From the NCBI GenBank assembly GCA_964625855.1, contig CAZVFC010000001.1, positions 201,756 through 265,755 of the forward strand: 64,000 bases of DNA. Direction: 5' to 3'. Source of the DNA: an uncultured Verrucomicrobiota bacterium (GTDB taxonomy: Bacteria; Verrucomicrobiota; Verrucomicrobiia; Limisphaerales; UBA8199). Each line of letters starts with the position of its first letter. Within the stretch, counting starts at the first letter, position 1. The notes below the pieces were generated by a model. The model searched no databases. It saw only the letters and a program-made list of their open reading frames with translations, and had not been told where the DNA came from. Positions 3,789-61,654 of the stretch are shown here, one piece after another. A program made the translations under genes and the position numbers.

Positions 3789-3846
3789 GTAGGGCGGGCG
3801 TCTCGCCTGCCCTTCCCGGCCGAGGCAGGCGAGACGCCTGCCCTAC
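3789..3846. repeat. Nested palindromic element (GTAGG...CCTAC family) between convergent genes; probable bidirectional terminator-like hairpin
   Basis: Arms GTAGGGCGGGCGTCTCGCCTGCCC (3789-3812) and GGCAGGCGAGACGCCTGCCCTAC (3824-3846) are near-perfect reverse complements. The element starts 5 nt after the nadE stop. The TAG stop of the minus-strand gene 3843..4619 lies inside the CCTAC end. Confidence 0.85.
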
Positions 3847-4619
3847 TTCAGCCGTTTGCCCCAGAGCCCGTGCTGTTCCTCCGAGTAACGGTCGCGCTCG
3901 GCAAAACGGCAGCCATAGCCCGCTGATCCCGGGAAGATGAAGATGACTCCCCGGTTGCGGTAACTCCAGGGATTCAGGCAGAACTTGTAATCGGCAGGAA
4001 CGCTCTGGGCGATGTAGTTCAGATCCAGCTTCCGGTCCTCATACTGGTCGAAGCACAAGCCGTTGCCCGCGTCAAAGTCGTCTATCACGATCACCGGCTT
4101 CTCGCACTCCTTGAATATGATAGCCATCTCGTCCTGCAGCGGCCAATACGCACCCCAGTGGGCGTCGAGGAAGAACAGCGACTGCGCACGGATCTCGGGC
4201 AGGTGCGCGCGCAGGAAATCCGGCGAGTTCTTCGTCTCGTAGATCAGGTTATCGGCGAAATACAGTTCGGGCCGGCGTTTCCAGTCAATCACGTCGCAGG
4301 TGAAGACCTTGTCGAACAGCAGGCTCATGGCCACTGAGGTCTCTCCGTCGTAGGTGCCGGTCTCGACGAAGTTGCGCAGGCCAAAGTCGGCTTTGAGCTT
4401 CTTGACGACCCGCACGAAGTTGGGGTCAATAATCGTGCGGCAGCCGCAGTTGTCGTGCATGTAGCGGTCGAAGGCTTTGGTGTCCTGCCCAAACCTCTGC
4501 CGCAGCTCATTTACTTCAGCAGCCGTCAAACGGCGGGCCTCGCGCTTCTTGATCTTGTAATTGATCAGCCAGTTGAGCAGGGCTCCCCCCACCGCAGTCT
4601 TTTTAAATGCTTCCAGCAT
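3843..4619 (-). CDS. Hypothetical protein, possibly a Rossmann-fold SAM-dependent methyltransferase
   Basis: 258-aa ORF with plausible composition. [12 protein letters not shown] resembles methyltransferase motif I, and LDAHW...PL resembles FkbM/CmcI-like proteins. The function is recalled from motifs only. Confidence 0.55.
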
Positions 4620-14400: not shown

Positions 14401-17400
14401 ACGACGTCTTCGTTCTCGCTGAGGACATGGCCCCGCTGATCAGCACCCAACCGCAAAGCCAGACCGTGCCTGCCGGAGACCCTCTAACGCTGAGCGTCGT
14501 AGCGTTTGGCACGCAGCCGCTGAACTATCAGTGGCTGCTGAACGGCACCAACCTCGACGGCGGCACGGGGAGTTCGCTTTCCTGGTCGGGCGTCCAGATG
14601 GCCGACGCGGGCACTTACTCAGTCTTACTTTCCAACCGTATCAGCACCACCATGAGTTCAAATGCTCTGGTGACCATCTATGTGCCGCTTTGTGTATCAG
14701 CACCGTCTGGTCTCGTCAGTTGGTGGGCAGCCGAAGGTAATGCCTCAGACGTATTTGGGACCAACAACGGTGTCCTTCAGAATGGAGCCGGGTTCGCGAG
14801 CGGCAGAGCAGCACAAGGTTTCGATCTCACTGCGGCAACCAGCTATGTCGAGGCACATGCCAGCCCAAGCTGGGCCTTGGGAACAAATGAGTTCTCGATT
14901 GAGCTTTGGGTGAAGTTTGTCTCGCTGGGAGGCAGCCGGGTATTTGTCGCGCATGACCAAGGTCCATACAATGCGAACAAGTGGATTTTCTGGCTGAACG
15001 ATGGGCAACTGCAGTTGCACCTTAATAGCCCAAGCTTGGGCCCGACTTACATTGGGTCCGGCTCCTTTGCCCCCGTGTCAAACCGCTGGTATCACGTGGC
15101 CATTACTCGTAGCGGACCACTCTTCTCGTTCTACCTCGACGGCGCCCTGAACTCGACCGCTACGAGCAGCGTCTCGATTCCCGACGCCAATGTACCGCTG
15201 ACCATAGGACAGGCAGAGAACTTGGCCTACCTAGGGGGATTTGCAGACGAAATTGCCATTTACAGCCGTGCACTGGGTGCCAGCGAAATTCGAGACATTT
15301 ACATGGCGGCCAGTGCGGGCAAGTGCCAGCCCACAAATGCCCCGTCCATCCTGGCGCAGCCGCAGAGTCAGACAGTTTTCGTTGGAACTGATGTGCGCCT
15401 CAGCGTGGAAGCCGCAGGCACTCGTCCCTTGAGCTACCAATGGACTTTCAACGGAACGAACTTGAGCGGTGCCATTAGCTCGGTGCTGGACCTTGCCAGT
15501 GTCCAACTGTCTGATAGCGGGAGTTACGCGGCGGTGGTCACTAATGCCTATGGCTCGATCACAAGCTCCAACGCGGTCCTGGTGGTCAACCAGGCTCCGC
15601 CCTGCGCCAGCCCACCCTCTGGGCTTGTCAGTTGGTGGGCGGCCGAGGGAGATGCCCTGGATTCGGCCGGAACCAACCATGGCGTTCTTCAGAACGGGGC
15701 TGGCTATTCCAATGGCGAGGTTGGCCAAGCTTTAGACTTCACCGGTGGCACCGGTTACGCTCAGGTAGCTGCCAGTCCGAAATGGGCCTTCGGGACAAGT
15801 GACTTCTCAATCGAGCTGTGGGTGAAGTTTGCGTCGCTGGGTGGAAGCCGCGTCTTCGTTGCAAGCGACCAAGGCGGGGGCAATTTAAACAAATGGATTT
15901 TTTGGTTGAATGCAGGCCAGCTACAGCTGCACCTCAATGGCCCTGCTGTAGGTCCAACTTACCTCGGGTCGGGTGCCTTCAATCCCGTGTCGAACCGCTG
16001 GTATCACGTCGCCGTTACACGGAGCGGATCACTCTTTTCGTTTTACCTCGACGGCTCGCTGAATTCCACCGCGACGAGCACTGTGGCGGTGCCTAACGCC
16101 AACGCGCCGCTGACCATTGGCCAAGCGGAGAGTCTTGCCTACCTCGCAGGTTATGAGGACGAGATTTCTATCTACAATCGCGCGCTGACTGCCGGCGAAG
16201 TTCAATCCATTTACAACGCGGGCAGCTCAGGCAAATGCCAGTTGACAAATCCGCCTTCGATTTTAACTCAGCCACAGGGACGGACGGTGTTCGCGGGAGC
16301 CGGTGTGACTCTTAGCGTGACAGCGGCGGGCCACCGCCCACTAAGCTACCAGTGGACCTTCAACGGGACGAATCTGACGTGGGCTGTCGGCGCTGCCTTG
16401 AGCTTCACGAACGCGCAGCTTTCTGACAGCGGCAGCTATGCAGTGATAGTTGCCAATGCTTACGGCTCGGTGACCAGTTCTCCCGCAGTGTTGGTGGTTA
16501 ATCCTGCTCCGCCCTGTGCCGCTCCACCTTCCGGCCTCATCAGTTGGTGGCCAGGCGAGGGCACTGCTAATGATACGGTGAGCACTAAGAACGGGACGCT
16601 GCAAGGGGGGGCAACCTTTGCCTCTGGCGAGGTGGGGCTCGCTTTCGCTTTCGGCACTTCGGGGAGTTATGTGCACGTTCCCGACAGCGATCTCTGGGCA
16701 TTCGGCACCAGCAGCTTCGCCATCGAGCTGTGGGCCAATTTCAATGCGATCCCCGGCTCGCCTTACAGTGAGCCTCGGGGCGGCACGCTTGTCGCCAACG
16801 ACGAGGGGCCATATAACGTGAAGAAGTGGTGGTTTGCCCTGGGGGGAGGGCTGCTAACCTTCCATATCAATTCCCCTGGGCTGGGATCGGTCTTCTTGGT
16901 TCGCGCCCCGTTTACACCGGTCACGAACCAGTGGTATCACCTGGCTGTCGTGCGCAGTGGTAGTGTCTTCACGATGTTTCGCGATGGGGTTGCGATCGGT
17001 TCAGAGACAAATAGTATGGCCATACCCAACCCAAGCGCACCTCTAACCATCGGTCGAGCAGAGGATTTCTACTTCAACGGCCGACTTGACGAAGTTAGCG
17101 TATACAACCGTGCGCTCTCCGCGGGTGAGGTCGCGGCCATATATAGCGCTCGCAGTTCGGGCAAGTGCGGCCTTATGCCCGCCCTTCAGACGCCGCCGTC
17201 CAACCAGACCGTGGAGTGTTCGAGTAACGCCAACTTCTCGGTCACTGCCACCGGGTTGCCACCCTTGGCGTATCAGTGGTTCTTTGGCACGAGCGCTCTC
17301 CCCGGGGCGACCAACACGCAGCTCACCCTGACCAATGTCGGCTTCGCCCAGGCTGGAGCTTATTCCGTCCTCATCACCAACATTTTCGGCAGTGTAACCA

Positions 17401-23427: not shown

Positions 23428-23900
23428 CGGTCAATCCGTCAATCCCATGGCAGACCTTGGTCCTGGAGCCATAGAACCGGTGCCGGGACGGCGCTGGTGA
23501 GCCGGTGATTGTTTGCGATTAAGGTCAGTTTGGCGGTGCACAACTTAGCGCCAGACTTTAGTTCAACGGAGGTTGAGCGCAAGTTCATTTACCCCCCTGC
23601 GCGGGCTGGGCGCACAGTCTGGCTGCTCAAGCGGCGGCCCAGGACCCGATGGCCTCGGCAGTCAACCGGGCTAACGGCAAGCGTGCGCGGGACATCTGCT
23701 CAACCGGGCCGCCGCTTTAGCAGCCAGCGCTAGGTCCTGTACTTATAGCGGATCGCGTCGCCGGGTGTCTGTCAGGCTCAGCACTACACTTGTTGTAGGG
23801 GTTAACCCTACACGCCCTATGGGGGTGTGCGGCCAGACGCACACTTTGCGGCGTTGGGCGCGTGGGCCAGACTGCACGGCGAATGCATGATACCCTGGAA

Positions 23901-23969
23901 GGAGCGCGGACATTCTTGTCCGCCTGCCGAATGGTGCGCAAGACGGGCGGACAGGAATGTCCGCGCTCC
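23901..23969. repeat. Palindromic element with GGAGCGCGGACA...TGTCCGCGCTCC arms
   Basis: Arms at 23901-23924 and 23946-23969 are reverse complements with one mismatch. Each arm contains its own small hairpin (GCGGACA-N3/4-TGTCCGC). It lies in the 635-bp non-coding gap upstream of the 24.0-35.4 kb cluster. Confidence 0.85.
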
Positions 23970-24062
23970 TTCTCGCCTACACCCTGGCCAGACTGCGCCC
24001 GCAATGATTAACGGTTTGCATTCAGTTGACTATTCCTTAAATTGATAGGGCGAACGGGCTCA

Positions 24063-42955: not shown

Positions 42956-43004
42956 GGACGGGAAAGGGCCTGCGACGGCGCCTGCGCCCTGGAATCTGGA
43001 CATT

Positions 43005-43104
43005 CTGCATATCCCCTTGGCTCTAGCATCCACTGGATTCGCTAAGGTTTCCGGGCACCGCGTCTCCGAGATTCCGCAGGGGCTAGAGCAAAGGGGATAT
43101 GCAG
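43005..43104. repeat. 100-bp element bounded by 23-bp inverted repeats
   Basis: CTGCATATCCCCTTGGCTCTAGC (43005-43027) and GCTAGAGCAAAGGGGATATGCAG (43082-43104) are reverse complements with one mismatch, separated by a 54-bp spacer. Confidence 0.8.
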
Positions 43105-43142
43105 ATTTGGGCATTTTCCGCGGGGCCGAATCCTGAAATGAT

Positions 43143-43319
43143 GAGATCACTGAGCCCAAGCCTGCGAGTCGCAATCCCAAAGGAATTGAATCACCGAACC
43201 CAGGCTTGTGAGTGGCAATCCCAATGGGATTGAATCACCGAGCCCAGGGTTGCGAGTGGCAATCCCAAAGGGATTGAATCACTGAGCCCAGGCTTGTGAG
43301 TGGCAATCCCAAAGGGATT
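43143..43319. repeat. Array of four contiguous ~44-bp REP-like repeats
   Basis: Units at 43143-43187 (degenerate), 43188-43231, 43232-43275 and 43276-43319. The consensus is GAATCACYGARCCCAGGSTTGYGAGTGGCAATCCCAAWGGGATT. Each holds the hairpin CAATCCC-AAA-GGGATTG. There are no spacers. Confidence 0.9.
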
Positions 43320-43422
43320 GAATCACTCAGCCCAGGGTTGCGCGCGGCGCGCTACCCTGGGTGCGCGATGGATTAGGGCGTCAACCCTGAAAGGGTTGCA
43401 TCGTTTGTCCCTTTCACCGCAG

Positions 43423-43878
43423 TCAATCCCACACATACCGTTCGTCGTATGCAAGTTCATACCGCTTGAGCAATAGCCGGAACTCATCCTGAAATGAAAC
43501 CTTGCGGTGATGCTGCTCCTGCTCGGCGATGTAGCGCCGCACATCCTCAATTTGCGAGGCGCCAATCGAGAACATTCCGTAGCCGTTCTGCCAGCCAAAG
43601 TCCCGCATCCCGGCAACCCGCTCCTTGACCCAAAGCGACGAGCCGCGCTTCACCTCCTTGACCATTTCCGCCGCCGCGCAGGTGCGTGACAGGCTGGCGA
43701 GCAGGTGGACATGATCTTCCACGCCGCCGACGATGATGGGCTGGCAATCCAGGTGCTTGAGAATGCCTCCGAGATAGTGGTGGCATTCTTGCCGCAGCGC
43801 GGCGTCGCGCAGCAAGGGACGGCGGTCTTTGGTGGAGAAGACGGTATGCACGAGAATCCTGGCCAATGATTGCGGCAT
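43423..43878 (-). CDS. tnpA: IS200/IS605-family Y1 (HUH) transposase, REP-associated (RAYT-like), copy 1
   Basis: MPQSLARILVHTVFSTKDRRP...VEDHVHLLASL (HUH)...RRYIAEQEQHHRK (catalytic Tyr region)...DERYVWD. The start is taken at the ATG giving MPQSL, the usual family N-terminus. Confidence 0.9.
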   Translation of the reverse strand: MPQSLARILVHTVFSTKDRRPLLRDAALRQECHHYLGGILKHLDCQPIIVGGVEDHVHLLASLSRTCAAAEMVKEVKRGSSLWVKERVAGMRDFGWQNGYGMFSIGASQIEDVRRYIAEQEQHHRKVSFQDEFRLLLKRYELAYDERYVWD

Positions 43879-44042
43879 GCCGACGAGAATGGATTGGGCG
43901 GCGCGGGGATGCAACCCTTTCAGGGTTGGAGGTATATTGGGGCGCACACACCCAGGGTTGCGCGCGGCGCGCTACCCTGGGTGCGCGATGGATTAGGGCG
44001 TCAACCCTGAAAGGGTTGCATCGTTTGTCCCTTTCACCGCAG

Positions 44043-44498
44043 TCAATCCCACACATACCGTTCGTCGTATGCAAGTTCATACCGCTTGAGCAATAGCCGG
44101 AACTCATCCTGAAATGAAACCTTGCGGTGATGCTGCTCCTGCTCGGCGATGTAGCGCCGCACATCCTCAATTTGCGAGGCGCCAATCGAGAACATTCCGT
44201 AGCCGTTCTGCCAGCCAAAGTCCCGCATCCCGGCAACCCGCTCCTTGACCCAAAGCGACGAGCCGCGCTTCACCTCCTTGACCATTTCCGCCGCCGCGCA
44301 GGTGCGTGACAGGCTGGCGAGCAGGTGGACATGATCTTCCACGCCGCCGACGATGATGGGCTGGCAATCCAGGTGCTTGAGAATGCCTCCGAGATAGTGG
44401 TGGCATTCTTGCCGCAGCGCGGCGTCGCGCAGCAAGGGACGGCGGTCTTTGGTGGAGAAGACGGTATGCACGAGAATCCTGGCCAATGATTGCGGCAT
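44043..44498 (-). CDS. tnpA: IS200/IS605-family Y1 transposase (RAYT-like), copy 2
   Basis: Translation identical to copy 1, offset by +620 bp. Confidence 0.9.
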   Translation of the reverse strand: MPQSLARILVHTVFSTKDRRPLLRDAALRQECHHYLGGILKHLDCQPIIVGGVEDHVHLLASLSRTCAAAEMVKEVKRGSSLWVKERVAGMRDFGWQNGYGMFSIGASQIEDVRRYIAEQEQHHRKVSFQDEFRLLLKRYELAYDERYVWD

Positions 44499-44662
44499 GC
44501 CGACGAGAATGGATTGGGCGGCGCGGGGATGCAACCCTTTCAGGGTTGGAGGTATATTGGGGCGCACACACCCAGGGTTGCGCGCGGCGCGCTACCCTGG
44601 GTGCGCGATGGATTAGGGCGTCAACCCTGAAAGGGTTGCATCGTTTGTCCCTTTCACCGCAG

Positions 44663-45118
44663 TCAATCCCACACATACCGTTCGTCGTATGCAAGTTCAT
44701 ACCGCTTGAGCAATAGCCGGAACTCATCCTGAAATGAAACCTTGCGGTGATGCTGCTCCTGCTCGGCGATGTAGCGCCGCACATCCTCAATTTGCGAGGC
44801 GCCAATCGAGAACATTCCGTAGCCGTTCTGCCAGCCAAAGTCCCGCATCCCGGCAACCCGCTCCTTGACCCAAAGCGACGAGCCGCGCTTCACCTCCTTG
44901 ACCATTTCCGCCGCCGCGCAGGTGCGTGACAGGCTGGCGAGCAGGTGGACATGATCTTCCACGCCGCCGACGATGATGGGCTGGCAATCCAGGTGCTTGA
45001 GAATGCCTCCGAGATAGTGGTGGCATTCTTGCCGCAGCGCGGCGTCGCGCAGCAAGGGACGGCGGTCTTTGGTGGAGAAGACGGTATGCACGAGAATCCT
45101 GGCCAATGATTGCGGCAT
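44663..45118 (-). CDS. tnpA: IS200/IS605-family Y1 transposase (RAYT-like), copy 3
   Basis: Translation identical to copy 1, offset by +1240 bp. The longer track ORF (to 45343) is an artefact of the different upstream flank. Confidence 0.9.
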   Translation of the reverse strand: MPQSLARILVHTVFSTKDRRPLLRDAALRQECHHYLGGILKHLDCQPIIVGGVEDHVHLLASLSRTCAAAEMVKEVKRGSSLWVKERVAGMRDFGWQNGYGMFSIGASQIEDVRRYIAEQEQHHRKVSFQDEFRLLLKRYELAYDERYVWD

Positions 45119-45190
45119 GCCGACGAGAATGGATTGGGCGGCGCGGGGATGCAACCCTTTCAGGGTTGGAGGTATATTGGGGCGCACACA

Positions 45191-45276
45191 CCCAGGGTAG
45201 CGCGCCGCGCGCAACCCTGGGCTGAGTGATGCAACCCCTTGGGGGTTGGGCTGCGTGATGCAAGCCCTTTGGGATA
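45191..45276. repeat. Right-flank inverted GC hairpin plus two REP-like hairpins in the opposite orientation to the left array
   Basis: 45191-45230 is the exact reverse complement of 43322-43361. It is followed by GATGCAACCCCTTGGGGGTTG and a degenerate GATGCAAGCCCTTTGGGAT. Confidence 0.85.
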
Positions 45277-45416
45277 GACGCCATTTCCGTCTGCAAAACG
45301 TCCAAACGCCAGGGCGCCTGCGCCGGCAGTGCCGGCCCAGCAAAATTGATCAGGCGCCGCAGTTTTGCGCGGGGCGGAGGTTCCCTTTAGCCTGAACGTT
45401 TCATGCCTGCAAGAGC

Positions 45417-45477
45417 GGCGCGCGGGCATCTTGCCCGCTTTGCGCGCCCGGACGACCAAAGCGGACAAGATGTCCGC
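45417..45477. repeat. Two short GC hairpins downstream of deoC (terminator-like, no U-tract)
   Basis: GCGGGCA-TCT-TGCCCGC at 45422-45438, with outer GGCGCGC/GCGCGCC pairing, and GCGGACA-AGA-TGTCCGC at 45461-45477. Confidence 0.6.
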
Positions 45478-45520
45478 GCTCCGGTCTGTTGGCGTTTCGT
45501 TCTGGGGAGGAATATCCGGC

Positions 45521-46315
45521 TTAGGATCCTCCTGACCCAATCGCTCCACCCCGGCTGGGGGATGGCACGCCCGCTTTCTCGGCGGCTTCGCGGCGACGGT
45601 ATTCGTCCAACATCGCGGCGGTGGCTGTGGCTCCACAGCGCGAGCAGCCGAGGTCGCGGACCCGAATCAGGCCGTCCAGGTCACGCACACCGCCAGCCGC
45701 CTTTACCTGGACTCTTTCGGACACGCTCGCGCGCATGAGAGCCAGGTCGTGTTCCGTGGCCCCCTTGTAGTTGTAGCTGCCGTCGGGCTGCTTCACGAAT
45801 CCGTAGCCGGTGGAGGTCTTCACCCAATCGGCGCCGGCGCGTTCGCAGAGCTGGCAGAGCTTCTGCTTGAAGTCGTCGCTGCTCAGGCCGGCGCCGCCCT
45901 TCGCGAGGTAGTCGGTCTCCAGGATCACCTTCACCTTCGCGCCGCGACCGTGCGCCTCGTCGCAGACCGCCTTTACGTCGCGTTCGACGTAGTCCCAATC
46001 GCCCGAAAGCGCCTTGCCGAGGTTGATCACCATGTCAATCTCGACCGCGCCATCTTTGCACGCCAGCTCCGTTTCATAACGTTTGGCTTCGGTAATGGAA
46101 TTGCCGTGCGGAAAGCCGATGACGGCGCCGACCCGCACGCCCGTGCCGCGCAGCAAATCGGCGGCTCGTTTGACGGCGTACGGTTTAATGCAGACGGAGG
46201 CCACGCCGTATCGGGCGGCCAGCTTGCACCCGTCCTCCAACTCCTGATCCGCCATGGTCGGATGCAGGAGCGAGTGGTCAATCATCTTGGCGAGCTGTTC
46301 GTAGGTGTATTTCAT
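45521..46315 (-). CDS. deoC: Deoxyribose-phosphate aldolase
   Basis: MKYTYEQLAKMIDHSLLHPT...VCIKP...VKAAGGVRDL (Schiff-base Lys region). The track ORF extends to 46453, but ATG 46315 gives the canonical N-terminus. Confidence 0.88.
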   Translation of the reverse strand: MKYTYEQLAKMIDHSLLHPTMADQELEDGCKLAARYGVASVCIKPYAVKRAADLLRGTGVRVGAVIGFPHGNSITEAKRYETELACKDGAVEIDMVINLGKALSGDWDYVERDVKAVCDEAHGRGAKVKVILETDYLAKGGAGLSSDDFKQKLCQLCERAGADWVKTSTGYGFVKQPDGSYNYKGATEHDLALMRASVSERVQVKAAGGVRDLDGLIRVRDLGCSRCGATATAAMLDEYRRREAAEKAGVPSPSRGGAIGSGGS

Positions 46316-46594
46316 GGTTGGGGTCAAGCTGCTGGCACTGAGTGAATTTGGTGGGGGCGTTGACACCACCACCGCTCTCGGCAGTCGGGACATGCGCGGA
46401 GCGCGGCTGGCCTCAGCCGCAGCACGTGCGATAGCGAGTGGGTTTCGAGACACGGGGGGAAGCCCGCATCGTCGGGGGTGCTGCGGCTGAGGACAGCCGC
46501 GCTCCGGTGGCGGTGTCGGGATGCGCCCATTTGGTGGCGTCCCGGCTGTAGAAACCGATGCATCGGTTCGGTGCGGGGTGATCCGGCTTCCCGG

Positions 46595-58768: not shown

Positions 58769-61654
58769 CTAGCCGCGCGCGCTTTCCTGAACCGCCCTCA
58801 CGCACCTCCCGCAGATGGTCGGATGCTCGGCGACTGATCCGATATCGGTCTCCCAATGCCAGCAGCGTTCACACTTTTCGCCGGCGGCTTTGCTGACGGA
58901 AATTGTGAGGGCCGCCTCACCCGCCGGCCGGAACTCGAGCTGGGAAACGTTGAGCAGCTCGCGCAGCGATTCCTGATGCGCCTGAGCGGCTGCCACCGCC
59001 GGACTTGAGCCGACAAAGGTCAGTTTCGCCTCGAGGGCCTTGCCGATCGCTTTGGCCTGCCGGGCCTTCTCCAGTTCCGGCAAAGCCAGCTCGCGCAGCT
59101 CGAATAGCGCCTTCCAATCCGCCCGCTCAACCTCGGGCCGGACAAAGTCCAGGTGTTGCCAGGTCAGTTGATGCACGGAAGCAACCGTCTTGCCCGGCAC
59201 ATACTCCCACGCCTCATCCGCCGTAAACGCCAGCACCGGCGCGAGCATCCTGCAAAGGCCGGCGACCATCCGGTGCAACACGGTCTGCGTCGAGCGGCGC
59301 CGGGGAGAGTTCGCCGCATCGGTGTAGAGGCGGTCCTTGACCACGTCGTGATAGACGGCGGAGAGTTCGACTGCCACAAACTGGCTCACCTTCTGGTACA
59401 CGACGTGAAACTCGTATCGGTCATAAGCGGCTATGACTTCCTGCTCCAATTGAGCAAACGCACCCAGGACCCAGCGGTCCAGGCCGGTTAGCTTGTCATC
59501 GGGCACGGCATGTTTGGCCGGGTCGAAGTCGTAGAGGTTGGAAAGCTGGTAGCGCAGGGCATTGCGGAGACCGCGATATGTCTCGGCCACGGTCTTGATT
59601 CGCTCCTCGCTGACGATGATGTCATTGCGGAAGTCCTGAGATGCCACCCAAAGGCGGACAACGTCGGCGCCCCACTTCTTGACGTACGCCTCCGCAGTCT
59701 GTGGCTTCTCGTAAGCGCCCTGTGTCTGCTTGCTCTTGGAAATCTTCTCGCGGTCGGCATCCACCATGAAACCGTGGGTCAGCACGGTCTTGAAGGGCGC
59801 GGCGCCGTTGCCCGCCAGCGAGAGGAGCAGCGAGGACTGGAACCACCCGCGATGCTGGTCGCTGCCCTCCAGGTACATGTCGCACTGGAAGCGTTTGTTG
59901 CTGCCGCGGATTTCCGCGCGCCGCGCAATCACCGCGCGCGAGGAAGAGCCGGAATCAATCCACACGTCCAGCGTGTCGTTCGACTTGGCGGCGGGCGTCG
60001 GCCCTTTCCAATCCGCCGGCCTGAGAGCGGCCCAGAGCTCGGCGGCAGACCTCTCGAACCAGCTATTCGATCCGTGCTGCTCAAAGAGGGCTGCGGCGTT
60101 CCGGACGATCTGGGCGTCGAGTATGGCATTGCCCTCCGCGTCGTAGAACGCCGGGATCGGCACGCCCCAGGTGCGCTGGCGTGAGATGCACCAGTCGGGC
60201 CGGCCCTTGACCGCGGCCTCGATCCGGCTCTTGCCCCAGTCAGGCACCCAGTTCACGCGGTTGATCTCTTCCAGCGCTCGCTCGCGGAATGAACGTAGGA
60301 CAGGCGTCTCGCCTGTCCCTGTCTGGTCTGTTGCAGCCGAGGACAGGCGAGACGCCTGTCCTACCTCATGGTCAACCTCGATGAACCACTGATCCATGGC
60401 GCGGAAGATGATCGGCGTCTTGCTGCGCCAGCAGTGCGGATAGCTATGGTGATAGTTTTCCTGGTGCAGTAGCGCCTTGCGCACACGCAACTCGTGCAGC
60501 ACCGCCTCGTTCGCCTCGCTCTTGCCGTGCTTCTCCAGGATGGCCTTGCCAATCATCTCGGCGGGCATCTGTTGTTCCTGCGGCAGATCGCTCGTGTAGG
60601 CGAACTTCCCGTCATCGTCCACCGGCGAGTAGATGGGCAGGCCGTGCTCCGTGCCGAGGTGGTAGTCATCCAAGCCGTGCCCCGGGGCAATATGAACGAA
60701 GCCCGTGCCGGTGGCATTGTCCACAAAGCTGTCCCCGGCAAAGAACTTTCCCCTGCGGTTGCAGAACGGATGCTGGTATTCGAACTGGCTCAGGTGCCCG
60801 CCGTCGAGGCTGCGGACAATCTGATAGCCCTGCCAGCCGCACTTCTCGGCCACCGTCGGCAGCAGGAGGGCGGACACGATGTATTGCTCCTGACCCACCA
60901 GCACCAGCGAGTAGCTAAAGGTGGAGTTGTAGGCCACCGCGAGGTTTGCCGGCAGAGTCCAGGGCGTCGTGGTCCAGATCACCACCGACGTGCCCGGGTG
61001 CCCGACCAGCGGGAACTTCACATACGCGCTCTGGCTCACGTGATCCTTGTATTCCACTTCCGCCTCCGCCAGCGCGGTTCGGCAGGGTATGCTCCAATAC
61101 ACCGGTTTCTTGCCGCGATACACGAAGCCCCGCTCCACGATGTCCGCGAAGAGTCGCAGTTCCTCGGCCTCGTATTCCCGGGCCAGCGTCAGGTAAGGAT
61201 TGTCCCAGTCCCCGAGCACTCCGAGCCGCTTGAACTGGACGCGCTGGATGTCAATGTACTTGCGCGCGTAGGTTTCGCACGCCTTGCGAATAGTGGCCGC
61301 GTCGGTGGCGGTGTCGCCCGCTTTGCGCATGTCCTGGCTGACCTTGAACTCGATGGGCAGCCCGTGGCAATCCCAGCCCGGCACATACGGCGCACTAAAA
61401 CCGCGCAGAGTTTTGTACTTGATGATGATATCCTTGAGAATCTTGTTCAGGGCGGTGCCGATGTGCACATCGCCGTTAGCGAAAGGCGGCCCGTCGTGCA
61501 GGACAAACCTCTCCGCGCCGGCGCGCTGAGCCTGGATAGCGGCATAAAGCCCCGCGGCTTCCCACTGTTTGAGCCGCGCCGGCTCCCGCGTCACCAGGTC
61601 TGCCTTCATCGGAAAATCGGTCTGCGGCAGGTTCAATGTGCTCTTGTAGTCCAT
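58769..61654 (-). CDS. ileS: Isoleucyl-tRNA synthetase
   Basis: 961 aa with the HIGH motif (PFANGDVHIGTAL), the KMSKS motif (KISKSK), WCISRQRTWGVPIP, and a C-terminal Zn finger (CERCWHW...CGRC). Confidence 0.97.
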   Translation of the reverse strand: MDYKSTLNLPQTDFPMKADLVTREPARLKQWEAAGLYAAIQAQRAGAERFVLHDGPPFANGDVHIGTALNKILKDIIIKYKTLRGFSAPYVPGWDCHGLPIEFKVSQDMRKAGDTATDAATIRKACETYARKYIDIQRVQFKRLGVLGDWDNPYLTLAREYEAEELRLFADIVERGFVYRGKKPVYWSIPCRTALAEAEVEYKDHVSQSAYVKFPLVGHPGTSVVIWTTTPWTLPANLAVAYNSTFSYSLVLVGQEQYIVSALLLPTVAEKCGWQGYQIVRSLDGGHLSQFEYQHPFCNRRGKFFAGDSFVDNATGTGFVHIAPGHGLDDYHLGTEHGLPIYSPVDDDGKFAYTSDLPQEQQMPAEMIGKAILEKHGKSEANEAVLHELRVRKALLHQENYHHSYPHCWRSKTPIIFRAMDQWFIEVDHEVGQASRLSSAATDQTGTGETPVLRSFRERALEEINRVNWVPDWGKSRIEAAVKGRPDWCISRQRTWGVPIPAFYDAEGNAILDAQIVRNAAALFEQHGSNSWFERSAAELWAALRPADWKGPTPAAKSNDTLDVWIDSGSSSRAVIARRAEIRGSNKRFQCDMYLEGSDQHRGWFQSSLLLSLAGNGAAPFKTVLTHGFMVDADREKISKSKQTQGAYEKPQTAEAYVKKWGADVVRLWVASQDFRNDIIVSEERIKTVAETYRGLRNALRYQLSNLYDFDPAKHAVPDDKLTGLDRWVLGAFAQLEQEVIAAYDRYEFHVVYQKVSQFVAVELSAVYHDVVKDRLYTDAANSPRRRSTQTVLHRMVAGLCRMLAPVLAFTADEAWEYVPGKTVASVHQLTWQHLDFVRPEVERADWKALFELRELALPELEKARQAKAIGKALEAKLTFVGSSPAVAAAQAHQESLRELLNVSQLEFRPAGEAALTISVSKAAGEKCERCWHWETDIGSVAEHPTICGRCVRAVQESARG
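60295..60364. repeat. 70-bp nested palindromic element (GTAGG...CCTAC family) inside the ileS coding sequence
   Basis: Arms at 60295-60318 (GTAGGACAGGCGTCTCGCCTGTCC) and 60341-60364 are perfect reverse complements, with a 22-nt spacer. It is translated as VGQASRLSSAATDQTGTGETPVLR within IleS. Confidence 0.9.

Follow-up and report, generated by a model that had tools for sequence, protein, structure and literature searches.

A locus with three identical genes for a small transposase of the Y1/HUH type, set in tandem between hairpin arrays of opposite orientation, was examined in a 64,000-nucleotide stretch (hereafter, the window) of contig CAZVFC010000001.1 from GenBank assembly GCA_964625855.1, which derives from an uncultured Verrucomicrobiota bacterium. 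All positions follow the numbering of the 64-kb window, and L-numbers (L001 etc.) denote the loci of relatives or the metagenome contigs that were fetched for comparison. An earlier reading made from the letters of the window (the sequence-only reading) had interpreted the locus as the organism's home locus of a repetitive extragenic palindrome (REP) and its REP-associated tyrosine transposase (RAYT), pointing to an exact 40-bp inverted repeat that brackets the genes. A script check found 43322-43361 (ATCACTCAGCCCAGGGTTGCGCGCGGCGCGCTACCCTGGG) to be the perfect reverse complement of 45191-45230, and the bracketing of the transposase genes by hairpins in inverted orientation, a REPtron-like layout, was likewise confirmed. 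The inverted repeat extends beyond 40 bp, matching at 93% over 60 nt (43304-43363 / 45189-45248), and its perfect part consists of a linker and a GC hairpin, called H2 below. Because this GC hairpin is near-palindromic, 28 of the 40 positions are trivially self-complementary, and the independent information in the 40-bp repeat comes down to a 9-nt linker and three asymmetric positions. At the left end and at both internal junctions the hairpin reads ...GGGT-T-GCGCGC-G-GCGCGC-T-ACCC..., while the right-terminal copy (45191) reads ...GGGT-A-GCGCGC-C-GCGCGC-A-ACCC...; the flip that had been reported for this copy alone is real and can be detected at those three positions only. Hairpins of the form CAAYCC-N(1-7)-GGRTTG, of which about 0.1 would be expected by chance in 64 kb according to a rough calculation, number 11 in the window, 10 of them within the locus, and a perfect inverted pair of 21-nt hairpins (CAACCCTGAAAGGGTTGCATC / GATGCAACCCTTTCAGGGTTG) immediately flanks every gene copy.

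What had been described as a 'REP' (H1) and a separate 'GC hairpin' (H2) form, together with an inner hairpin that was overlooked (H3), a single module of about 105 nt. Each end of the locus, read inward, presents a terminal motif (CTGGA..TGGAC.TT.TGC) followed by this three-hairpin module, and among 80 loci encoding relatives of the transposase, which were fetched from a genome collection, the nearer relatives have the same architecture upstream of the gene and its mirror image downstream. In the relatives H1 takes the form CAATCCC-NNN-GGGATTG or a covarying equivalent and is followed by the linker NATCAYTCAGC; H2 is CCCAGGGT-T-G[variable stem-loop]C-T-ACCCTGGG, with a conserved T.T mismatch and an AGCC foot; a variable spacer of 20-25 nt separates H2 from H3; and H3, CAACCC-TGAAA-GGGTTG followed by NATC, is almost invariant across phyla. 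An alignment (A1) was made of 43 modules of Verrucomicrobiota, Planctomycetota, and Acidobacteriota, taken upstream as well as downstream of the gene, and served to build a covariance model (R1). Standard pairs fill 99% of the pair cells of A1, and compensatory changes occur at 11 of 19 pairs (six of six in H1 and four of eight in the lower stem of H2, H3 being nearly invariant), a result that none of 500 shuffles equalled and that collapsed in controls with slid partners. The upper stem of H2 varies in sequence, yet at least four consecutive pairs are retained in 24 of 52 distinct variants compared with about 1% of shuffles, and the T.T mismatch of H2 is present in 56 of 82 instances. R1 detects the module in 79 of the 80 relatives' loci, including those from Acidobacteriota, Bacteroidota, and Desulfobacterota, with matches typically on the plus strand where they closely precede the gene and on the minus strand where they closely follow it. 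These results mark the module as a structure that is conserved and under selection.

Folded as single-stranded DNA (ssDNA), a check that the sequence-only reading had suggested, the end modules form three hairpins with energies of -31 to -32.5 kcal/mol and z-scores of about -6 (left module -32.5 kcal/mol, z -6.3), and both strands fold equally well. Because G.U pairs are nearly absent from A1 and both strands fold equally, a role at the DNA level on either strand fits better than a role as RNA. The triloops of A1 are GAA in 16 of 43 H1 (columns 15-17) and 37 of 43 H3 (columns 112-114), and otherwise mostly AAC or AAA. Loops of the C-GAA-G type form unusually stable DNA mini-hairpins, which would suit a role in single-stranded DNA. 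No Rfam family matches the module, the search in E-value mode returning only spurious microRNA and small RNA matches, and a literature search on the H3 sequence string retrieved no relevant paper.

Each 620-bp unit of the tandem holds a minus-strand open reading frame (ORF), which in gene copy 1 reaches upstream to a GTG at 43947; because homologues align from residue 24 of the longest ORF, the likely product is a protein of 151 aa starting at the ATG (43878 in copy 1). It matches Pfam Y1_Tnp (PF01797) with an E-value of 2.6e-22 over profile positions 4-121 of 121, passes the NCBIfam IS200/IS605 equivalog model (NF033573) marginally (59.6 bits against a cut-off of 55), and fails the NCBIfam model REP_Tyr_transpos (NF047646; 16.6 bits against a cut-off of 80). 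Among solved structures, weak sequence matches (E 2e-4) were obtained to the IS608 TnpA, where the match is specific and the HUH and Tyr motifs align, and to archaeal IS200-like proteins; E. coli TnpA-REP was not matched in the Protein Data Bank sequence search at E <= 1. The tyrosine motif is YIAEQEQHH (Y---Q--HH) instead of Y---NP. In an alignment with 18 diverse relatives, down to 52% identity, the invariant residues, DHVH and the tyrosine among them, are D55, H56, H58, W96, Q97, Y116, I117, Q120, H123, and H124, and a C-terminal tail is conserved as well (F129, Q130, E132, R134 ... D145, E146, R147, Y148, W150, D151). Judged from its sequence, the protein is a Y1/HUH transposase and no classical RAYT; of the identity first proposed, the transposase class thus stands, and the RAYT assignment gives way to the failed RAYT model, the Y---Q--HH motif, and a hairpin foot other than GT[AG]G.

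By motifs and length the protein fits TnpA-Y1 subclass 1.2, whose signature comprises DH[IV]H, WQ, YIKNQKEHH (Y---Q--HH), a median length of 148 aa, a specific C-terminal domain, and low copy number (Quentin et al. 2018, Table 1, PMC6006769); our literature search on this subclass found no work later than that paper. More than 7,875 database proteins belong to the family at E <= 1e-20, annotated by JGI as 'REP element-mobilizing transposase RayT' and by NCBI as 'IS200/IS605 family transposase', and the best match in the genome collection, from a Verrucomicrobiae metagenome-assembled genome, is 86% identical. Exact-match look-ups of the 174-aa and 151-aa products found none. A scan for promoters and terminators was uninformative, H3 resembling a terminator solely on the strand opposite the gene. 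A 94%-identical homologue (protein P0007; L155-L160) occupies one chromosomal position in contigs from 9 samples, between genes for a beta-lactamase-family protein and a quinolinate phosphoribosyltransferase, so that this gene-bearing copy is stably resident in that lineage.

Comparison of the window with its closest relatives (L001, L085, L094, L107, and L132, of which L001, L085, L094, and L132 encode proteins 86-93% identical in amino acids to the window transposase) showed homology that runs from the terminal motif to its mirror image and ends there, the flanking genes being unrelated (Table 1). The terminal motif is kept as CTGGAGTTTGGACATT... at the ends of L001, L085, L107, and L132 and of metagenomic deletion derivatives. 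We consider it fairly likely that a single small mobile element, encoding a Y1 transposase of subclass 1.2, occupies 42989-45312 and that the bracket is formed by its two structured terminal inverted repeats. A 12-bp direct repeat directly outside the element ends sits at the centre of a bigger imperfect palindrome. The sequence-only reading had mentioned neither this repeat nor the terminal motif nor the 21-nt hairpin pair around each gene. Near the left end, a 102-nt palindrome is probably a secondary insertion; it resembles a small palindromic insertion with a duplication of about 20 bp.

Table 1. Features of the transposase locus in window coordinates (R1, covariance model of the three-hairpin module).
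Feature	Position	Strand	Remarks
12-bp direct repeat GGCGCCTGCGCC, left copy	42977-42988		Itself a small hairpin; directly outside the putative element terminus
Left terminal motif CTGGAATCTGGACATTCTGCA	42989-43009	+	Outermost piece of the long terminal inverted repeat
102-nt palindrome	43004-43105		24-nt arms, 96% complementary; between two imperfect terminal-motif copies (42989-43009, 43104-43125)
Degenerate outer hairpin (43129-43145), then four 44-bp tandem units	43129-43321	+	
Left full three-hairpin module	43299-43404	+	R1 95 bits, E 4e-21
Parts of left module	H1 43304-43320; linker 43321-43330; H2 43331-43361; H3 43382-43398; foot CATC 43399-43402		H2 with T.T mismatch; spacer between H2 and H3
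Transposase gene copy 1	43423-43878	-	151 aa, Y1/HUH, subclass 1.2 type
Junction of gene copies 1 and 2	43906-44024		119-nt palindrome
Transposase gene copy 2	44043-44498	-	Identical to copy 1
Junction of gene copies 2 and 3	44526-44644		Identical to first junction
Transposase gene copy 3	44663-45118	-	Identical to copies 1 and 2
Right full three-hairpin module	45146-45253	-	Canonical on minus strand; R1 92.6 bits, E 1.5e-20
Parts of right module	foot GATG 45148-45151; H3 45152-45168; H2 45191-45221; linker 45222-45231; H1 45232-45248		H2 flipped; spacer between H3 and H2
Second, degenerate outer-hairpin unit	45247-45275	-	Second copy in the 29-bp register
Right terminal motif	45292-45312	-	Mirror of 42989-43009; reverse complement is CTGGCGTTTGGACGTTTTGCA
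12-bp direct repeat GGCGCCTGCGCC, right copy	45313-45324		

Copies of the ends were found in metagenomes. The exact 33-nt string AG+H2 occurs in 72 metagenome contigs representing 51 distinct flank contexts, and an intact gene is present in only 5 of the 72 (3 contexts), with 91-93% protein and 87-89% DNA identity to the window unit. About 28 of the 72 carry two convergent modules 14-288 nt apart, that is, internally deleted doublets resembling miniature inverted-repeat transposable elements (MITEs) or REPINs, and most others carry single modules. One deletion class (the 180-class) has a 180-nt interior with identical breakpoints and codons 1-46 retained in at least 6 unrelated contexts, a spread that would be difficult to account for had no non-autonomous copy been mobilised. 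In 441 kb of related contigs only 3 CAAYCC-type hairpins lie apart from a module; with such isolated hairpins essentially absent, the dispersed unit is the composite end and no short REP. Within the window, R1 run with filters off returned the two full modules, two junction hybrids, and partial 44-bp units, and nothing outside the locus better than E = 1. Several copies show further rearrangement. L083 and L095 share the flanks of L132, which has an intact gene where they have a 203-nt remnant, which means either that at least some deletion derivatives are generated on the spot or that the locus varies within the population. In L107 (4472-6547) a module pair, with H3 cut in the loop or the 3' arm, surrounds a 1.86-kb insert devoid of a Y1 gene, with the inverted repeat AATGGCGCT / AGCGCCATT at its borders; the centre has been invaded or replaced by a different element. 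In L098 (about 3165), L135, L150, and L152 the end of an unrelated element breaks the lower stem of H2, each time at an identical position (...ATATA|AGGGTTGCGCGC). Another insertion sequence (IS) may use H2 as its target, or these four may be one locus sampled repeatedly.

The dispersed palindromes of the window itself are of other kinds. Those at 1577-1641, 3789-3847, and 60295-60364 are GTAG-footed, REPIN-like REP doublets (e.g. GTAGGGCGGGCGTCTCGCCTGCCC ... GGCAGGCGAGACGCCTGCCCTAC), which are neither related nor adjacent to the hairpins of the transposase array and whose presence implies that a separate class-2 RAYT is probably encoded somewhere in the genome; a six-frame regular-expression search of the window for such an ORF (HUH ... 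Y[IV]xxNP), which is a weak test, found none. The core of these doublets, CAGGCGAGACGCCTG, is the hairpin that is duplicated at the element ends in L001, and it also lies beside the element in L094. A second family of palindromic doublets, GGAGCGCGGACAT(T)CTTGTCCGC with 26-27-nt arms, is found at 23898-23972 and 45417-45482. The latter copy, just right of the element, gave a spurious Rfam match to mir-942, and its CCCTGGAA...GGACATTCT stretch resembles the terminal motif of the element.

These distributions bear on the first interpretation of the locus, under which a domesticated, single-locus RAYT would have its cognate REPs scattered genome-wide as short REP sequences or bacterial interspersed mosaic elements (BIMEs). 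The inverted hairpins around the gene agree with it, as do the JGI label of close homologues, the residence of the P0007 homologue (94%) at the same place in 9 samples, and the combination of few intact genes with many deleted doublets known from RAYT/REPIN systems. Against it stand the failure of the REP_Tyr_transpos model and the lack of both the Y---NP motif and the GT[AG]G foot; no module or cognate short REP occurs in the ~61 kb of the window outside the locus, which is, within the window, the finding that had been named beforehand as speaking against a REP population, and the dispersed REP doublets there belong to the GTAG-footed family; the units dispersed in metagenomes are whole three-hairpin modules, isolated hairpins being essentially absent from the 441 kb of related contigs; and close relatives lie in unrelated contexts, some with flank duplications, which points to insertion events over vertical residence. 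We accordingly hold a REP/RAYT home locus to be improbable, and its supposed population of short REPs finds no counterpart in the window or in the metagenome contigs.

The arrays that flank the bracket can be related to the module. Repeat detection confirmed the four 44-bp units on the left (CAATCCC-AAA-GGGATTG, then AATCAC) and the two units on the right: the left array comprises 4.5 copies of the 44-bp unit (43146-43342, 88% matches) and the right array 1.9 copies of a 29-bp unit (45218-45273). The 44-bp unit had been described as half of the GC hairpin fused to one 'REP', and it indeed consists of H1 (CAATCCC-AAA-GGGATTG), the linker AATCACYGAG, and the first ~16 nt (the 5' half) of H2, with 23 of 27 positions identical to the full module. 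The half-H2 of these units has the GCGAG form of the relatives and the H2 of the window the GCGCGC form, so the units were not copied recently from the H2 next to them. Relatives too have flank arrays, in keeping with the array growth that had been proposed: one extra 44-bp unit is present in L094, L104, and L142 (one locus, 88% identical), and direct arrays of whole modules occur in L118 (four modules with a 181-nt period), L068, L034, and L044. We infer that both arrays, of 44-bp and of 29-bp units, consist of truncated end modules whose number grew through slippage; the 44-bp array would result if two direct modules were first fused by a deletion and slippage then set in.

The three 620-bp units (43331-43950, 43951-44570, and 44571-45190) are 100% identical, and every unit begins at H2. 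Each internal junction has one H2 at its centre, oriented as at the left end; spacers of 22 nt and 20 nt separate it from the upstream and the downstream H3, respectively, and neither H1, the outer hairpin, nor the terminal motif is present. As ssDNA the 119-nt junction palindrome folds with -46.5 kcal/mol (z -10.1). Unit identity extends just 8 nt (CCCAGGGT) into the right-terminal H2. Being near-palindromic, H2 can also be aligned between the two ends in direct orientation, with 28 of 31 positions matching, and it is probably recombination at H2 that joined the gene copies. On the simplest reading, a single illegitimate exchange, or a template switch during replication, involving these two H2 copies would give a duplication, and the 620-bp homology would then allow a third gene copy to form. 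The three genes appear to be a secondary, recent amplification. L046 has two paralogous gene copies 1.9 kb apart. A 620-nt homologue contig (L153) was considered as a collapsed tandem unit and rejected, as it ends in Illumina adapter and is just a fragment.

Two other explanations of the triplication were weighed. The triplication may be an assembly artefact with one real gene copy, in which case the bracket and the arrays would still be real; zero differences across 3 x 620 bp, unit boundaries within a strong palindrome, where assemblers and polymerases misbehave, and the lack of any tandem relative speak for this. The usual error for perfect repeats, on the other hand, is collapse and not expansion, the array is embedded in unique flanks, and the asymmetric H2 orientation is consistent at each junction; in addition, missed-adapter chimeras produce inverted, not direct, duplications. 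An artefact is thus in our view unlikely. Still more doubtful is that an ordinary IS of the IS200/IS605 type inserted three times in a row beside its own target, the tandem being made by transposition and the junctions being circle-junction copies. Such an origin would accommodate the pass of the equivalog model (59.6 against 55 bits), the IS608 TnpA as nearest solved structure, the three identical copies, and the presence of exactly one H2 per junction, as joined right and left ends would give. Dispersed copies, however, extend about 100 nt past H2 and end at the terminal motif or further out, so that H2 is not a transposition end and a transposase-made tandem is less likely, and for this reason the circle junction was dropped as the leading idea; moreover, the ends are inverted instead of forming an asymmetric left and right end, no target tetranucleotide is conserved, and 0 of about 90 related gene-bearing loci are tandem.

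Direct duplications of part of a hairpin or palindrome were found immediately outside the terminal motif in the window (12 bp), L001 (20 bp), the 180-class (19 bp), L099 (14 bp), and L117 (14 bp). That of the 180-class is a hairpin with its loop in like orientation on both sides, and that of L099 falls inside a GTAG-footed REP doublet. Longer direct repeats lie slightly further out in L027 (24 bp), L013 (35 bp exact, about 110 bp imperfect), L039 (60 bp), and L032 (68 bp). The repeat of L027 apparently includes the 3' end of the upstream ORF, and L032 and L039 show one target sequence duplicated in two different Pyrinomonadaceae genomes. Where present, the duplication looks like insertion into a hairpin or palindrome with that hairpin duplicated. 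No conserved flank sequence or target tetranucleotide was found among the copies, and the idea that the 180-class regularly has its target duplicated at the outermost ends, GTAAC...GTTAC, was rejected, such a duplication being present in L143 (8 bp) and absent in four copies.

If the bracket is a mobile element of this kind, its transposase most likely recognises hairpins in single-stranded DNA, as the TnpA of IS200/IS605 and TnpA-REP do, with H3 and the mismatched H2 as candidate binding sites. A T that is unpaired or mismatched is among the features by which the IS608 hairpin is recognised, and H2 here has its conserved T.T mismatch. Substrates of the enzyme would be the gene-bearing copies and, in trans, internally deleted ones reduced to their two ends, the latter making up the dispersed population of the metagenomes; IS200/IS605 elements have non-autonomous palindrome-associated derivatives (PATEs), and the element here likewise has ends-only deletion derivatives. 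A broader proposal, which we offer tentatively and regard as rather unlikely as a whole, is that subclass 1.2 transposases define widespread, undescribed ssDNA mobile elements in several phyla, having three-hairpin inverted ends and MITE/REPIN-like doublets and inserting at the feet of hairpins or palindromes, REPs included, on both strands, with duplication of the target hairpin (12 to >60 bp). To our knowledge, duplication of a target hairpin on either side has not been described for HUH/Y1 transposition.

Several observations weigh against these proposals. The link between the protein and the hairpins is drawn from co-occurrence and covariation, and the mechanistic steps are inferred. The ends are inverted, whereas those of IS200/IS605 lie on one strand in one orientation, so the known peel-and-paste scheme is not transferable as it stands. 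The window itself contains no dispersed copies, and its tandem arrangement is unique, being absent from all of the about 90 related gene-bearing loci. About four fifths of the checked loci have no direct repeat within 130 nt, about a fifth having one, and we know of no Y1 transposition that yields direct flank duplications. An empty site in the form H1-H2-H1' (H2 with linkers on both sides) was not found in the 80 genome-collection loci, nor was an uninterrupted 55-nt outer palindrome found in the fetched loci or the window. Finally, in the 180-class the element moves together with its outermost arms (GTAACTGTTCAGGTGTGG...), which contain a REP-like hairpin with a GTGG foot, so that a different enzyme could be moving such composites.

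The last point leads to a reading that we find very doubtful, namely that the Y1 gene and the modules are passengers, the doublets being moved by a class-2 RAYT through outer GT[AG]G-footed hairpins or by a DDE transposase through outer inverted repeats, or the hairpins being regulators at the RNA level. In its favour, GTGG-footed hairpins and outer inverted arms of 18 nt form the ends of 180-class copies, a direct repeat of 8 bp lies beyond the outer arms of L143, the GTAG doublets of the window suggest that a class-2 RAYT is probably in the genome, and the position of H3, 29 nt ahead of the ATG, would allow it to act in the 5' untranslated region. Against it, 79 of 80 loci from different phyla have the module together with the gene irrespective of the sequence outside it, the outer hairpins vary between copies where H2 and H3 do not, four other complete 180-type copies lack a direct repeat outside the outer arms, the near absence of G.U pairs and the equal folding of both strands favour DNA over RNA, and the hairpins persist in copies without a gene to regulate.

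Taken as a mobile element of subclass 1.2, the locus can be set beside known systems. It resembles the REPtron or RAYT-REPIN systems (E. coli TnpA-REP with REP/BIME and Pseudomonas RAYTs with REPINs; PMC6006769, PMC3116915, PMC5581495) in having a Y1/HUH gene flanked by inverted hairpin repeats, a short conserved foot beside each hairpin, hairpin units clustered around the gene, and few intact genes alongside many non-autonomous inverted doublets able to fold into long hairpins. Unlike RAYTs, which are class 2 (Y---NP), its protein is class 1 (Y---Q--HH) and fails the curated RAYT model; its foot is GAT[G/T] (GATG/GATT, NATC on the other strand) where RAYT REPs have GT[AG]G; its repeat unit is the three-hairpin module of ~105 nt plus terminal motif where theirs is a REP of 20-40 nt; and the locus differs further in that single hairpins show no dispersal, direct duplications surround some of the copies, and three tandem copies of the gene are present here. 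With IS200/IS605 elements (IS608, ISDra2, IS200; family features in PMC6006769) it shares a small (~150 aa) HUH/Y1 transposase, the Y---Q motif, and imperfect hairpins near the ends. Its ends, however, are mirror images over >100 nt where theirs are two differently built ends on one strand; IS200/IS605 elements insert 3' of a specific tetra- or pentanucleotide without target duplication, and here no target is conserved and 12-68 bp duplications occur in a subset; and the element lacks tnpB, has intact genes in low copy, and carries an extra conserved C-terminal tail (FQDE.R...YDERYVWD). As for an IS-like copy number, the three identical gene copies all lie at one locus, and the protein clusters occur on few contigs each.

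All listed signatures of subclass 1.2 are present, including a length of ~148 aa, the C-terminal domain, and low copy number (PMC6006769). That subclass was reported to be without associated REPs or secondary structures of IS ends (Quentin, Siguier, Chandler and Fichant 2018, PMC6006769), whereas the genes considered here (from Verrucomicrobiota, Planctomycetota, Acidobacteriota, Bacteroidota, and others) have a covarying, two-sided hairpin module and non-autonomous derivatives. TIRYTs, the tyrosine transposases associated with terminal inverted repeats (Di Nocera et al. 2013, summarised in PMC6006769), are similar in that a Y1 gene is bounded by terminal inverted repeats and not by simple REPs; 20 of 26 TIRYTs belong to subclass 2.1 with helix-turn-helix C-terminal domains, and their repeat consensus, GGGG[AT][CG]A[CG], is not described as multi-hairpin (PMC6006769). 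The locus thus works like a REPtron/REPIN system or an IS200 with non-autonomous derivatives, yet it fails defining features of both families, and the papers found by our literature search report no DNA partner for the subclass that it matches.

Y1/HUH transposases are a model for single-strand DNA transposition and for the spread of REPs, within which subclass 1.2 was left without a known DNA partner. If the module is that partner, the subclass would gain a testable substrate (H1, H2, and H3, top or bottom strand) and would be intermediate between selfish IS200 elements and domesticated RAYT/REPIN systems, and a new insertion outcome, the duplication of a target hairpin, may be added. The main interest lies in the covarying three-hairpin end module across phyla and in this possible hairpin-duplicating insertion. 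The perfect triplication joined at a palindrome would be a clean natural case of hairpin-mediated gene amplification, and the module itself is a recognisable, uncurated repeat family, absent from Rfam, that breaks short-read assemblies of soil and freshwater Verrucomicrobiota and Planctomycetota.

Two further repeats were recorded in the window. A strong inverted repeat at 46397-46506 (29-nt arms, 97% complementary, 52-nt loop) covers the 5' end of the ORF 45521-46453 and the sequence immediately upstream of it, and three diverged 912-bp tandem repeats at 14667-16741, 65-85% identical and unrelated to the element, are apparently repeated domains of a coding region.

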